Below, piece by piece: positions 18,128 through 36,826 of a stretch of 43,415 nt of DNA. A model generated the notes under the pieces. That model searched no databases and was not told the origin of the DNA. It saw only the letters and a program-made list of their open reading frames with translations. Numbering within the stretch: the stretch's first letter is position 1; every line of letters starts with the position of its first letter. The stretch is from a virus (taxonomy: Duplodnaviria; Caudoviricetes): IMG/VR virus record IMGVR_UViG_3300038336_000120, positions 1 through 43,415 of that record, one strand, 5' to 3'. Position numbers and translations under genes: made by a program.

Positions 18128-18336
18128 CGCAGTCGCGTGTGATGGCGTTCGTTGAGGCCGCGACCAATGTGATCGTCGGCTATGCGCTGGCAATCGTCAC
18201 GCAGATCGTTGTGTTCCCATGGTTCGGCATCGAGGCCGCACTCACGGAGCACCTGACGATCGGCTTGGCGTTCATGGCTGTTTCGCTGGCGCGGGGGTAT
18301 CTGGTTCGACGGTTATTTGAACGTTGGTGGGCATAG
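18124..18336 (+). CDS. Small two-TM membrane protein
   Basis: ATGA-coupled; EAATNVIVGY...VSLARGYLVRRLF hydrophobic pattern typical after phage MTases. Confidence 0.65.
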   Translation: MTQSRVMAFVEAATNVIVGYALAIVTQIVVFPWFGIEAALTEHLTIGLAFMAVSLARGYLVRRLFERWWA

Positions 18337-18410
18337 CCAGACGCTGGCACTTTCTGCTGTGGTATGATACCTTCATACTGAAGTTGTTGATCGCCACGGG
18401 GAAAAATTCG

Positions 18411-18692
18411 ATGTCTGCCATTCAAAAAAGAACTGTCAGCCTGCCACAGGAGCATGCGGCGTTTATAGATCGCCTGGTGGAATCCGGTGCATATGGCTCG
18501 GCAAGCGAAGTGGTGCGCGCCGGTTTGCGCGCCCTGCAGGAGCGCGATGCCGCCGTGGAACGCTGGCTACATGACGAAGTTACGCGCACCTATGACGAGG
18601 TTGCGGCCAGCCCGGATCGCGTTGTTCCGGCGGAGGCCGTTCGAGAGCGCTTGCGCGCCCGGCACCTTCAGCGTGGTGCCACCGAGCAATGA
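18411..18692 (+). CDS. parD: ParD-type RHH antitoxin
   Basis: TVSLPQEHAAFIDRLVESGAYGSASEVVRAGLRAL; GTATGA-N5-TCATAC palindrome upstream (18362-18378). Confidence 0.85.
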   Translation: MSAIQKRTVSLPQEHAAFIDRLVESGAYGSASEVVRAGLRALQERDAAVERWLHDEVTRTYDEVAASPDRVVPAEAVRERLRARHLQRGATEQ

Positions 18693-18991
18693 AGGAACGC
18701 AAAGTTGTCTTCAGCCTCGACGCCGAGGCTGAACTCCTTGAACTGTATGAGTGGATCGCAAACGCTGCGTCACCGGATGTTGCGTTTGGCTATGTGACGC
18801 GGATCGAGGCCTTCTGCCAGAGGTTGGGCATTGCGTCCGAGCGCGGTCAGTCCCGTGATGACATCAGGCCCGGTTTGCGCATCATTGGTTTTGAACGCCG
18901 CGTCACGGTCGCGTTCAAGGTGGAGCTTGACCGCGTCGTGATCCTGCGCCTGTTTTACGGCGGCCGTGATTGGGAAACACTGATGAGCTGA
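18689..18991 (+). CDS. parE: ParE/RelE-family toxin
   Basis: VVFSLDAEAELLELYEWIA...G.SRDDIRPGLR...VVILRLFYGGRD; ATGA-coupled to antitoxin. Confidence 0.85.
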   Translation: MKERKVVFSLDAEAELLELYEWIANAASPDVAFGYVTRIEAFCQRLGIASERGQSRDDIRPGLRIIGFERRVTVAFKVELDRVVILRLFYGGRDWETLMS

Positions 18992-22459: not shown

Positions 22460-23074
22460 TCAGCGTTGCCGCTTCTCGCGGCTGCGCTGGAAGGCTTCGA
22501 GCGAGACCTTGCGGCGCTCGGCGATCGCGCGGAGGCTTGCCGCAATCTCCGCTGCACCGAAATCGGTGGGATGGAAAGGGCCGCCGTACCAGCGAACCAT
22601 GTCCTTGTGCTGCAGGTGGCTGCGTTTCGCGATGGCTTCCAGAAAGTCCATGAAGCCGGACGGACCGCCGACGTCTTCGGGCGGCGCGCGACGCTCACCA
22701 TCAATGGAGGTGGGATAGTCGATGTCTGGATCAGCAACACCGACGCTTTCCACCGTGATCCGGTGTCGCCAGTCGTCGCCGAAATCGTAGGTATAAAGGA
22801 ACTCCGTGACCCCGCGGTCGATCAACGTGCCAAGCCGCATGGACTTGGCCTGGTAAGTCTTGCGCGCCCAGATTGCGTCATCAGGGCCGGGTTCACCGTA
22901 GTCGCGGCCCGCCACCGTGAACTGGTAGAGGTGATAGCCCTCCCACGGCATCACCGCTTGGATCACCTCATGCAGGACCCGCAGATTGGTGGTGAGGCTG
23001 ACCTCGATGCGCCGCCAGATTCGCGGCTCGATATGTTCGAGCTCAATAATGATCCGGGCGATTTTCTGAGACAT
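22460..23074 (-). CDS. Plasmid pRiA4b ORF3-family protein (moron)
   Basis: PRIWRRIEV, LHEVIQAVMPWEGYHLYQF, YTYDFGDDWRHRI, APPEDVGG; antisense to late operon. Confidence 0.85.
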   Translation of the reverse strand: MSQKIARIIIELEHIEPRIWRRIEVSLTTNLRVLHEVIQAVMPWEGYHLYQFTVAGRDYGEPGPDDAIWARKTYQAKSMRLGTLIDRGVTEFLYTYDFGDDWRHRITVESVGVADPDIDYPTSIDGERRAPPEDVGGPSGFMDFLEAIAKRSHLQHKDMVRWYGGPFHPTDFGAAEIAASLRAIAERRKVSLEAFQRSREKRQR

Positions 23075-23121
23075 GGCGCGACCTGAACGTGGTTTTGGCG
23101 CAAACATAGAAGGCGACGGCC

Positions 23122-23337
23122 ATGGCGACAATCACAGAACTGCGTGCCCGACGCGAGGTGCTGGCCGCGCAACGGTCATCTGGTGTGGCGCGTGTTAGCT
23201 ATGACGGCAAGACCGTGGACTATCGTAGCCTTGCCGAGATCGACCGAGCAATTGAGGTGATTGACCGCGAAATTGCTATGACCGAAGGGCGCAAGATCAT
23301 CCGGCTGGTGCGCGTGACTACCACCAAGGGATTGTAG
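23122..23337 (+). CDS. gpW-like head-tail joining protein
   Basis: SGVARVSYDGKTVDYRSLAEI; lies between terL and portal. Confidence 0.85.
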   Translation: MATITELRARREVLAAQRSSGVARVSYDGKTVDYRSLAEIDRAIEVIDREIAMTEGRKIIRLVRVTTTKGL

Positions 23338-28290: not shown

Positions 28291-28323
28291 CTTGCCTCGT
28301 ATTCCCGGCCAATCGTGCAACGA

Positions 28324-28347
28324 AAGGCGGGGAGGTCGCCCCGCCTT
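28324..28347 (-). terminator. Hairpin terminator downstream of the L,D-transpeptidase
   Basis: AAGGCGGGG-AGGTCG-CCCCGCCTT between convergent genes. Confidence 0.65.
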
Positions 28348-28361
28348 CAGAAATTCGAAAA

Positions 28362-29063
28362 TCAGTAAACTGCAGCGAGCTCGGGCGAACGGTGCGACGG
28401 CAGCACACGCACAGTCACACCGTGACGCACGCGCTGATGAAGGTCGATCACGTCCTGGTCCAGAAGACGAATGCAGCCAGATGATACAGCTTTGCCAAGA
28501 TATTCCGGCTCGCATGCTCCGTGAATCCGGTAAAGCGTGTCCACGCCATTCTGGAACAGATAAAGTGCTCGCGCGCCAAGGGGATTTCCCGCGCCCGGAT
28601 CCATGCCGCCGTTTGCTACGGAATACGGCTCCAGTTCGGGTCGGCGCGCGACCATCGTGTCCGGCACCTTCCAGCGTGGCCAGCTTCTGCAGAACTGAAG
28701 CCGGGCGTCACCTTGCCATTCGAACGCCGCAGCCCCGGTACCCGCACCATATCTCATGGCGCGTCCTTCGTCCTCTATCAGGTGCAGGAAACCGGCGTCG
28801 GGATCCACAACGATGGTTCCGGGCTCCTCAAGCGGAAATGGATTGTCAACCTCCTGACGCCAGAGCTTTGGCGGCACAATGCCTTCTGGTACCGCCGGAA
28901 TTGGATAGGGTTCACTCGTAATTGCGCCATAATGCGCGGGAAGCGGCGGAAAGATTTCGGCTTCTGGCTCGACCGGTGGCTGGAGAGAGGCCTGAGGGTT
29001 CATACCGCAAGCCGAAAGCGTCGCCACGGAGCCTCCGGCAACGAAAGCACGACGGGTCATCAT
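28362..29063 (-). CDS. L,D-transpeptidase (YkuD family), Tat lipoprotein
   Basis: TRRAFV twin-arginine signal, LSAC lipobox, PGTIVVD, NPLGARALYL, YRIHG...SSGCIRL catalytic motif. Confidence 0.93.
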   Translation of the reverse strand: MMTRRAFVAGGSVATLSACGMNPQASLQPPVEPEAEIFPPLPAHYGAITSEPYPIPAVPEGIVPPKLWRQEVDNPFPLEEPGTIVVDPDAGFLHLIEDEGRAMRYGAGTGAAAFEWQGDARLQFCRSWPRWKVPDTMVARRPELEPYSVANGGMDPGAGNPLGARALYLFQNGVDTLYRIHGACEPEYLGKAVSSGCIRLLDQDVIDLHQRVRHGVTVRVLPSHRSPELAAVY

Positions 29064-29069
29064 GTGTGT

Positions 29070-29135
29070 GGTCCTTATGTGCTGATGATCGTTGGTGACC
29101 GCGTATGTTGCGCGGCCGCGACAATCAGCAGGACC
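29070..29135 (-). promoter_or_regulatory. Stem-loop sequestering the ldt Shine-Dalgarno
   Basis: mRNA 5'-GGUCC UGCUGAU...GGCCGCG-CAACAUA-CGCGGUC...AUCAGCA CAUAA GGACC-3': the 5' arm is the last codons of the upstream ORF, the 3' arm covers AAGGA. Confidence 0.75.
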
Positions 29136-29496
29136 GGGGAGGATCCAGTGATCCCGCCGGTTTTACCCCAGTGAGCTGCGTTCTACCGGCAGGCAAGACG
29201 GAATCATCAGTAACTGTCAGATCCAGGGAAAGCGCCGATCCAAGAAGTGCGATATCCGGGCCGCAAGGTGAGCCGATCAAAACGGCTGTGCGACAGCGCT
29301 TCGGCTTTGGCGCGACAAACGTCCCATCGCGAAGGCCGCCAATAGAAACTGCAACAGGCGCTGCATCGGAGTCTGCAACGGCAAGTTCCGGACTCTGTTG
29401 GAACCGGGATTGTGAAGCAAGGGCTCCAGAATACGCACCCCATGGCAATACCGCCAAAACGAGGATGAGAATTGCGAGGGATCGAAGCAAGGCCAT
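29125..29496 (-). CDS. CutF/CruR-like exported leader peptide
   Basis: Sec-type signal (MALLRSLAILILVLAVLPWGAYSGALA), C-X9-C, C-terminal DPPRSC; 61 nt upstream of ldt. Confidence 0.65.
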   Translation of the reverse strand: MALLRSLAILILVLAVLPWGAYSGALASQSRFQQSPELAVADSDAAPVAVSIGGLRDGTFVAPKPKRCRTAVLIGSPCGPDIALLGSALSLDLTVTDDSVLPAGRTQLTGVKPAGSLDPPRSC

Positions 29497-29666
29497 TGGC
29501 TTTCGTTGCTGGCTCCGACACCGAAAGTCAAGGAAGCGATTGGCCTCGTGAGATCAATTCGCTGCGAGTTTCGCAGTCCCCTGAGGTTTGATCACTCTGA
29601 GGCGGATGACAATAGCCAAACATCATCGGCCCTTTCTCCCTCGTCTCATAGGATAGTCATTGACCT

Positions 29667-35419: not shown

Positions 35420-36091
35420 ATGACAAATTCGAATAAGCAGTTCGTTGAAAGTGCCGCACCAGAATATTGGTATAGTTACGCGCATGAGCTCGCGGATACG
35501 GCCGACTGGATTTACAAAAAGTCGAAAGGTGAGTGGATTGCTTACATTCACAGCTTTGCTGATGGCTCGACGGATACCTACAGCCGACCACTAATATCTC
35601 GCCCAGTCATGCTGATGTATGGTTTAGCCTTCGAGAACATGATCAAGGGGTTGCTGATCTCAGAAGAGCCAACTCTGTTGCAAGGCGGAAAACTTAGTAA
35701 GCATCTGCTGGGCCACGACCTTATCAAATTGGCAGGCCGTTTGCAGTCCATACAACTTGACGACAAGGAGCGCGAATTGCTCGCGCTACTTTCCGACGTC
35801 GTGCCGTACCACGGGCGCTATCCGGTCCCCAGAAACGCGCAAGACCTGAAACCAGAAAAGTACATCAGCGAAGACATATATACTTCTTGCAGGGCGTTGT
35901 TTGTCCGCTTTGAGATGCAGCTTTACAAGCTGAACTTCCAAGGAATTGACGCACCAGAGGGGGTTCGCTTCGCAAATTTACGCTTAACACATCTTGATGC
36001 CAAGGCGGATTTCATAACTGAAGAAGTTGATCTGGAAACGCAAAAACTCATCCGAGGCTTCAAAGATGGCTCGCGCGAAGCATCAAGATAA
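35420..36091 (+). CDS. Stand-alone HEPN-like protein (low-GC moron)
   Basis: GLAFENMIKG...GHDLIKLA...GRYP matches the E..lK / HdL / RYP pattern of HEPN domains. Confidence 0.65.
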   Translation: MTNSNKQFVESAAPEYWYSYAHELADTADWIYKKSKGEWIAYIHSFADGSTDTYSRPLISRPVMLMYGLAFENMIKGLLISEEPTLLQGGKLSKHLLGHDLIKLAGRLQSIQLDDKERELLALLSDVVPYHGRYPVPRNAQDLKPEKYISEDIYTSCRALFVRFEMQLYKLNFQGIDAPEGVRFANLRLTHLDAKADFITEEVDLETQKLIRGFKDGSREASR

Positions 36092-36159
36092 AAGTCAATA
36101 ACCGCATACGCTTTTAAGGATGGAAGCCACAGCCCTCGATTTCCAAAAGTTTAGCAGAT

Positions 36160-36230
36160 GCAGCGAAAGCCCGCTTCGTCCCGCACAGCAGAAGTTGGTG
36201 CCGAGCGCAGCGAAGGTCCGGTTCCCGCCC
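36160..36230 (+). repeat. GCAGCGAA-type direct repeats, copies 2 and 3 (47-bp period)
   Basis: GCAGCGAAAGCCCGCTTCGTCCCG (36160) and GCAGCGAAGGTCCGGTTCCCGCCC (36207). Confidence 0.6.
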
Positions 36231-36457
36231 TGAGTGTCGATCGACGTGAACGGCCCAAACCGGTTTTTCGTGGTTCATGGCAGGCACTTCATGCGAATTT
36301 CTAGAGGTGAGGTTACGCCGCTACGTTCAGCGCAACTTGACTCTACCCTAGATTGTTTTTATTTGATCTTGCCTAGGCCAATAGGTGCAGTCATGACCGA
36401 TGATCAGCATCAGGCCTCCCTTATCAAGCTGCGAGACAACCTATAGGGAATGCAGAC

Positions 36458-36826
36458 GTGATACATCCAGTTGACGCGTATGTTGGAAATCGGCTTCGTG
36501 TCGCGCGCACCTTGGCATCGAAAAGCCAGACCGAACTGGCCGAACACATCGGGGTGACATTCCAGCAGGTCCAGAAGTATGAGACCGGCGCAAACAGGGT
36601 CTCGGCCTCAAGGCTCTGGACAATTTCGAGATTCTTGAACGTCCCAATCGCGGCATTTTTCCCTGGAAATCCGGGGAGCCAGGAACACGAACTGAACAGA
36701 TACAGCCTTCACGACCTAAGAATTCTATCTCAAATCAAAGGATTGGGAGAACCAGAAAAGGCCGCAATGCAAAACCTCTTGGGGGTTCTCGCCAACGCCG
36801 CTGACACCTCTAAATCGCTGATTTAA
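36458..36826 (+). CDS. XRE-family HTH regulator (host-type, moron)
   Basis: HPVDAYVGNRLRVAR...GVTFQQVQKYETGANRVSASRL; GTG start after AGGGA. Confidence 0.85.
   Translation: MIHPVDAYVGNRLRVARTLASKSQTELAEHIGVTFQQVQKYETGANRVSASRLWTISRFLNVPIAAFFPGNPGSQEHELNRYSLHDLRILSQIKGLGEPEKAAMQNLLGVLANAADTSKSLI

Follow-up and report, generated by a model that had tools for sequence, protein, structure and literature searches.

Why does a phage carry, among its head and tail genes, a gene for an enzyme of the bacterial cell wall, and what might the small reading frame directly ahead of it do? The window, namely the whole stretch of 43,415 nucleotides analysed here, comes from a temperate phage: it encodes a serine-type integrase and has repressor-like genes, together with lambda-like genes for head and tail. 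An antisense insert separates a phrog_6367 gene from the tail terminator, in a region that viral locus comparison delimits as a variable cargo slot (28291 to 29666). The insert holds the two genes that had previously been read there, and ORFs, motifs and Pfam confirmed both: a leader peptide of the CutF type, predicted to be exported, with 123 residues, a pair of cysteines and a DPPRSC end (29125 to 29496, minus strand; ORF reading, homologue family and dN/dS), followed by a Tat-lipoprotein L,D-transpeptidase (LDT) of the YkuD family with 233 residues (28362 to 29063, minus strand). A gap of 61 nt separates the leader stop from the LDT start. A GC-rich, terminator-like hairpin lies 3' of the LDT stop (28323 to 28348; the fold of 28361 to 28310 has -20.4 kcal/mol, z -3.1); it is absent from the list of a terminator scan of the window, and it is the target of the one weak, sub-threshold match given by Rfam on the window.

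The downstream gene is assigned to the YkuD-family L,D-transpeptidases, with a predicted cross-linking or tethering activity. Its product scores 51.6 bits against YkuD (PF03734; E 2e-13), the cut-off being 23.4, has RR at residues 4-5 and an LSAC lipobox, and finds its nearest solved chain in 6v45_A (E 2e-37). The catalytic His181 and Cys197 are kept, within an atypical HGAC that brings an extra cysteine, Cys184. When compared with the motif HG(S/T)-X10-(S/T)XGC-hydrophobic-R, as given in PMC12729407, the His, the Gly, the X10 spacing and SSGCIRL are kept, and the S/T is replaced by Ala. The enzyme thus shares the spacing between His-Gly and the catalytic Cys, as well as SSGCIR, with the alphaproteobacterial Tat-lipoprotein type of YkuD LDTs, yet it belongs to a separate clade. 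Identity is 57-100% within this clade and below 53% to other LDTs, and a quick tree placed 57 rows of the LDT subfamily on one side of one branch (SH-aLRT 98). The clade keeps His181 and Cys197 and reads HG[AGD][CA], in place of the HG[TS] found in all 20 outside LDTs, and 37 of 50 leader-associated LDT rows have the second cysteine at 184, beside the active site.

Comparison of genomes identifies leader and LDT as a conserved two-gene cassette of Rhodobacterales, and not as an invention of the phage. In a search anchored on the LDT, which did not presuppose the leader, the clade was present in 31 of 401 Rhodobacterales genomes. An intact leader was found upstream, at 36-64 nt, in 25 of these 31; two more were partial, one having the leader tail and the hairpin at a contig edge and the other a 5'-truncated leader, and four clade members had no leader. 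None of 20 LDTs with less than 55% identity had a leader upstream, and a sample of 400 more genomes from across the class yielded no member of the clade. Over 49 non-redundant loci, the gap between leader and LDT measured 36-86 nt (median 58 nt), with the gene downstream sharing the leader's strand and lying within 1,000 nt, a limit of the CutF-like filters of Ozturk 2023. When the search was anchored on the leader instead, the LDT or its start came next in 29 of 33 loci, some of them redundant, and in the four without an LDT the leader was frameshifted or a truncated remnant. Such decay of the leader where the LDT is absent is as expected of an element that acts only in cis. One locus (L195) shares a photolyase-LDT-cyclopropane synthase neighbourhood with two others (L014 and L021) and has no leader, an apparent loss. 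Upstream of the leader, three further loci (L177, L183 and L020) have, within 3 kb, a second, distant YkuD gene in divergent orientation.

The phage-borne framing of the earlier note was not borne out: the cassette is mobile host cargo, present in this phage by chance capture. The sole other phage-borne copy that we found belongs to one prophage, which occurs as a contig of a genome and again as an IMG/VR record, and in which the cassette lies beside the same tail genes (87% and 97% identity). All other copies occupy chromosomal or plasmid loci with varied neighbourhoods. None of 80 related viral loci with the tail terminator contained the cassette; 65 of them had both flanks, and all 65 carried other, unrelated cargo of 333-2757 nt, with no empty slot seen among them. 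This cargo includes toxin-antitoxin pairs, transporters, enzymes and defence-like genes (L091-L170). In two possible source samples, contigs span the insert without differences, and a different insert in the same slot reaches about ten times its depth. The INPHARED phage set gave three LDT matches, 45-51% identical, and the one examined has no leader.

Neither Pfam nor NCBIfam nor PHROGs provided a name for the leader. Its N-terminus is hydrophobic, as found by script and by eye in the window ORF, and residues 1 to 23-27, with a conserved LPWGA, make up a predicted Sec signal peptide (29416 to 29496, minus strand). This assignment was made by eye and from SignalP of a family member, for which Sec/SPI with a cut at 22-23 (Pr 0.79) is given in Table S3 of PMC8456105. 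Conservation among homologues marks C68-X9-C78 as the predicted sensor site (29263 to 29295, minus strand), with C78 at 45 residues from the C-terminus, and the register of PP in homologues marks the DPPRSC tail as the predicted stall motif (29128 to 29145, minus strand).

A word search yielded 21 leader homologues; when 1.84 billion cluster representatives were searched with a profile, 209 matched at E 0.001 or better, 150 of which were listed. Motifs were counted in 163 retrieved homologues, all shorter than 200 aa and among the matches listed. In 155 of them the distance of PP from the end is exactly five residues, with Arg directly after PP in 142 of these; in 160, PP falls within 15 residues of the C-terminus. 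The C-X9-C spacing, found in 153 of the 163, is not CxxxC, which upholds the suggestion that the cysteines are spaced unlike those of CutF. The distance from the second Cys to the C-terminus is 45 residues in 135 of the 163 and 44-46 in 156, whereas that to the N-terminus is variable (61-80 residues in the 49 loci). Since the former is fixed and the latter varies, the Cys ruler appears to be set from the ribosome end. Leaders of the 49 loci measure 105-125 aa, and that of the window, with its 123 aa, falls under the 150-aa CutF-like filter of Ozturk 2023. The dN/dS values of six pairs, from 0.30 to 0.39, indicate purifying selection; in pooled pairs, which are not independent, dN/dS is 0.14 for both the Cys motif and the tail, and the linker regions are barely constrained (0.44-0.64).

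To what known system does this leader compare? The expectation had been a CutF/CruR-like leader, and the CutF part of it stood whereas the CruR part did not. The CutF protein of Rhodobacter capsulatus has 118 aa, with C69xxHC73 and PPP114-116 (PMC8456105, PMC9973294, bioRxiv 10.1101/2025.02.05.636593). Common to both are a size of about 120 aa, a Sec signal, here a predicted one, a second Cys that lies 45 residues from the end and 41 before the first Pro, and PP at five residues from the end; common to the cutF-cutO arrangement are the short gap, a hairpin at the SD (in the window) and a Tat substrate encoded downstream. The family differs from CutF in having C-X9-C and a weaker PP, in place of CxxHC and PPP, and from CutF-cutO in its target, here a peptidoglycan enzyme instead of a copper protein, with copper genes usually not nearby. 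A profile of the close family gave no significant score against cutO leaders.

CruR of Bordetella pertussis, through which copper represses by way of Rho, has C93 of 145 residues, 52 residues to the end, RAPP and a gap of 162 nt (PMC9426467). With CruR and DUF2946 (PF11162) the family shares a uORF at the operon head, predicted here to be exported, whose Cys motif is fixed with respect to a C-terminal Pro motif. In contrast with them, the HMM search gave no match to PF11162 in any of 151 leaders (0/1 at E 1; 0/150 at E 0.05; among the matches listed), CxxC with RAPP is absent from the family, RAPP occurring only in three Pseudorhodobacter-like tails, and the gap of CruR is longer. An exported leader, a C-terminal arrest motif and a hairpin over the next SD are also common to SecM, VemP and MifM, but these control the export machinery and do so without a Cys ruler. 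The cassette is CutF-like on every feature testable here except the Cys motif, and it is neither DUF2946 nor CutF proper.

Part of this family had been touched by an earlier screen. The list of CutF-like proteins of Ozturk 2021, gathered with an iterated CutF profile, has 2,938 entries (Supplementary Table 3, PMC8456105), and when its gene order is inferred from the known cutF-cutO rows, at least six rows have CutF directly before YkuD (Table S3 YkuD matches 1-156 of 160). One of those six could be tied to the present family, namely EGN72_12150, our P0168, which stands directly before YkuD and matches the family with an hhalign probability of 97.4% and, in a second comparison, at E 1e-4. Its presence in Table S3 means that the family was touched by the screen and not described: as far as the main text of the list paper goes, the leader family, the ruler, the hairpin, the LDT clade and the promoter are not described. 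The main texts of PMC8456105, PMC9973294 and PMC9426467 contain no match to transpeptidase or YkuD, and YkuD may be one of the neighbour classes tabulated in PMC9973294 (File S1, Fig. 6B). No literature on a leader-controlled LDT was found in a search outside which most subscription papers lay.

Folding placed a hairpin on the leader stop codon (29070 to 29135, minus strand), with its 3' arm running into the LDT ribosome-binding region, where the sequence AAGGA provides the Shine-Dalgarno (SD) of the LDT gene (29072 to 29076, minus strand). These 66 nt, read from 29135 to 29070, fold with -30.4 kcal/mol (z -5.27), and none of 200 shuffles was as stable. In the basal helix, GGUCC of the last leader codons pairs with GGACC, which covers the SD; the two leading A's of AAGGA loop out of the helix. 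In the window, opening the SD costs 3.8 kcal/mol when the RNA is free and 0.1 when the leader arm is masked, and the cost of opening the start region falls from 10.9 to 5.3 kcal/mol with a ribosome modelled at PP, that is, positioned so that the P site holds the second Pro. Throughout the 49 loci, opening LDT positions -22 to +3 has a median cost of 10.5 kcal/mol in free RNA and of 5.6 with the ribosome at PP. The modelled stall lowers the cost by at least 2 kcal/mol in 35 of the 49 loci and gains less than this in 14; in the controls, such a drop was obtained in 5/49 when the ribosome was placed 30 nt further upstream, and in 4/20 control LDTs. The free opening cost was not clearly higher than that of control LDTs (p 0.08).

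The proposal that the last leader codons sequester the SD thus agrees with the window fold but does not extend to the family as such, in which direct pairing of the SD with leader codons occurs in only 16 of 49 loci and the helix more often stops just 5' of the SD. The hairpin has a z below -2 in 18 of 49 loci. In 15 close loci the window structure is 87% paired, and 7 of its 23 pairs are changed on both sides; this covariation exceeds that of almost every shuffle and of every slid control, with the structure taken from the window and the count inflated because the sequences are related. RNAalifold, run on the same 15 loci, kept 15 pairs, five of them changed on both sides. The core conserved by these analyses comprises the helix on the stop codon and two upper helices. 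In the basal helix over the SD, which RNAalifold omitted, 74% of positions are paired and no compensatory change was seen in the 15 loci. Folding and covariation, which had been suggested as a check, spoke for the hairpin core more than for the basal SD helix. PP tail, Cys pair and hairpin are all conserved in homologues, so that the lack of conservation by which the earlier note would have been refuted was not seen. A covariance model built from the 15 close loci found the hairpin in four of five genomes, together with two matches at E about 0.4 that are not tied to a leader; with just 15 true sites recovered in 62 loci, it does not serve to detect the family as a whole.

Conserved positions, of which the earlier note says nothing, were also found ahead of the leader. 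The window has a predicted sigma70-type promoter, recognised by motif conservation, with TTGACT at -35 and A at -11 from the leader ATG (29503 to 29531, minus strand). Counted from the leader ATG, 35 of 49 leaders have T[TCG]GAC at -36 to -34, for a shuffle mean of 0.4 and a maximum of 3, and 33 of 49 have A at -11. A word resembling an SD precedes 6 of 49 leaders, as against 42 of 49 LDTs. Together, the conserved -35 and -11 positions and the rarity of the SD predict a leaderless mRNA starting at the leader ATG, from which the leader looks to be translated. A scan of the window with a strict consensus found no promoter. About 60-80 nt upstream of the leader, close relatives have an inverted GCG-N5-CGC element followed by AATTGAT (29553 to 29575, minus strand, in the window), which we take to be a possible site of a redox regulator, e.g. 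RegA/PrrA or an Fnr half site.

Neighbouring genes bear on the cue to which such a leader might respond. Among 23 LDT-anchored loci with an intact leader, none had a copper-specific neighbour within 4.4-kb flanks, in a scan that covered 207 of 241 ORFs, with long ones cut to 420 aa, at E 1e-15, a strict cut-off at which small proteins may be missed. GTDB loci with the leader showed no copper-specific neighbours either; in the published CutF-like neighbourhoods, copper neighbours are reported for 88%. In two Paracoccus yeei plasmids, leader and LDT lie inside an island with CopA, CueR, copper-storage and multicopper-oxidase genes, and one locus with a truncated leader adjoins a heavy-metal ATPase. 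Four loci are placed among sulfide or persulfide genes (L007, L008, L010 and L011), and two lie beside a peroxidase. Of the four leaderless clade members, three have DsbA/DsbD together with two-component or metal-repressor genes around them, which looks like a hand-over of control to transcription factors. Dsb proteins shield the catalytic Cys of LDTs. LDT genes recur in cassettes of metal islands that combine DsbD/TlpA/DsbA with two-component genes (L190, L191, L194 and L030), and YkuD is frequent in the copper islands of Table S3 (PMC8456105); a role for the LDT in copper islands seems undescribed in the literature searched.

Five of these genomes also contain seven leaders of the CutF/CruR type, with stop-codon hairpins, before PCuAC or multicopper oxidase genes. 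The multicopper-oxidase leaders have the same build, one of them with CxxxC at 45 residues from the end. Against the family profile, all three oxidase leaders scored above 30 shuffled controls and the four PCuAC leaders did not; the oxidase-leader scores are low, and common descent with the family is not proven by them. The seven look unannotated (L205, L208, L209, L212, L219, L220 and L223).

How could these parts work together? We lean, by a little, towards a leader of the CutF type that stalls at PP on copper binding, melts the hairpin and permits translation of the LDT. That the cassette is a cis-acting translational gate is highly probable, and that a stall at PP switches this gate on is probable; whether the cue is copper or some similarly thiophilic metal is an even call. 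By analogy with CutF, the leader would be exported co-translationally by Sec, its periplasmic Cys pair would bind copper, and the ribosome would then stall at the C-terminal PP. The stalled ribosome would melt the stop-codon hairpin and free the LDT start, a freeing that the folding model reproduces, and the outcome, again as in CutF, would be LDT ON. Among the metals tested, only copper is reported to inhibit an LDT of Vibrio cholerae (PMC11390936). Since copper inhibits LDTs, the cell would make more of the clade LDT, and the purpose may be to keep 3-3 cross-links or outer-membrane tethers in the presence of the metal; the LDT could itself be copper-tolerant, given its extra active-site Cys. 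It is possible, and in our view rather doubtful, that leaderless mRNA, C-X9-C and hairpin amount to a mobile copper or thiol switch that needs no transcription factor, serves a copper-tolerant LDT, can be transmitted by phages and would be the first instance of cross-linking controlled by stalling.

The same stall and hairpin could answer to another cue, namely the thiol state of the periplasm, and we regard this, the main rival, as unlikely, though with several observations in its favour. Folding of a disulfide loop would normally pull the chain out of the stall, and a blocked C68-C78 disulfide, whether by sulfide, reductants, oxidant or Dsb overload, or several metals, would turn the LDT on or off. 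A loop of nine residues would suit a metal site and a disulfide equally, copper itself acts by blocking disulfides in the model of the CutF preprint (bioRxiv 10.1101/2025.02.05.636593), and the sulfide, persulfide and peroxidase loci, the leaderless members in Dsb islands and the extra Cys184 all fit. However, the tested relatives of the same build are reported to respond to copper, those Dsb islands are metal islands too, and, given how varied the neighbourhoods are, a chance landing of one lineage may account for the sulfur cases. The sign of the response could also be that of CruR: a default stall would keep the LDT on until a ligand releases it, upon which re-folding of the hairpin or termination by Rho shuts off the LDT, which copper would inactivate anyway. 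CruR works so (PMC9426467), and the direction of a response is not readable from sequence; but the 45-residue Cys distance, the register of the tail and the median gap of 58 nt fit CutF instead, and a location in copper-resistance islands fits induction, which makes a CruR-like sign improbable.

Sensing might be dispensed with altogether if the leader were a small secreted helper, such as a chaperone or redox partner of the LDT, joined to it by ordinary translational coupling. Purifying selection on the leader is compatible with this, and a hairpin centred on the stop codon would be opened by termination alone. A helper, however, would need neither a C-terminal Cys ruler nor a fixed PP, the linker regions of the leader are barely constrained, and translation without copper is described as insufficient for downstream expression in the case of CutF; we therefore hold coupling to be quite improbable. 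Least credible, to the point of being very improbable, is a module selected by the phage for lysogenic conversion or superinfection exclusion, as the earlier note had raised, with the LDT hardening the wall against the lytic transglycosylases of competitors. Overexpression of LdtE did reduce lambda and P2 plaques in Escherichia coli (PMC11390936), and a second prophage has the cassette beside the same tail genes. Against this, there are two phage copies as opposed to over 40 loci outside phages, arbitrary cargo enters the slot, and it is another insert that predominates in the two possible source samples. The cassette may still bring a side benefit to the lysogen.

If the CutF-type stall that we favour, triggered by copper or by a change in periplasmic sulfur chemistry, were true, the cassette would be the first sensor of its kind whose output is the cell wall instead of metal handling. 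The tested leaders of the CutF kind control copper proteins, while here the device would be connected to an enzyme class that copper poisons, linking metal or redox sensing to cell-wall chemistry. It would also give a specific, testable job to one of the many redundant LDT genes of alphaproteobacteria. Furthermore, the 45-residue ruler with its new Cys spacing offers a natural variant for asking how ligand binding beyond the membrane alters ribosomal stalling, and the cassette is small, self-contained and easily tested in R. capsulatus, where CutF assays exist.

Elsewhere in the window, an antisense ORF of 223 aa without a PHROG match lies between the terminase and the head-tail adaptor (22460 to 23131, minus strand), as a second cargo slot. 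A low-GC insert in the tail genes (35420 to 36826) contains a further 223-aa ORF without an assigned function and an HTH regulator, and a toxin-antitoxin-like pair follows a methyltransferase (18324 to 18991).
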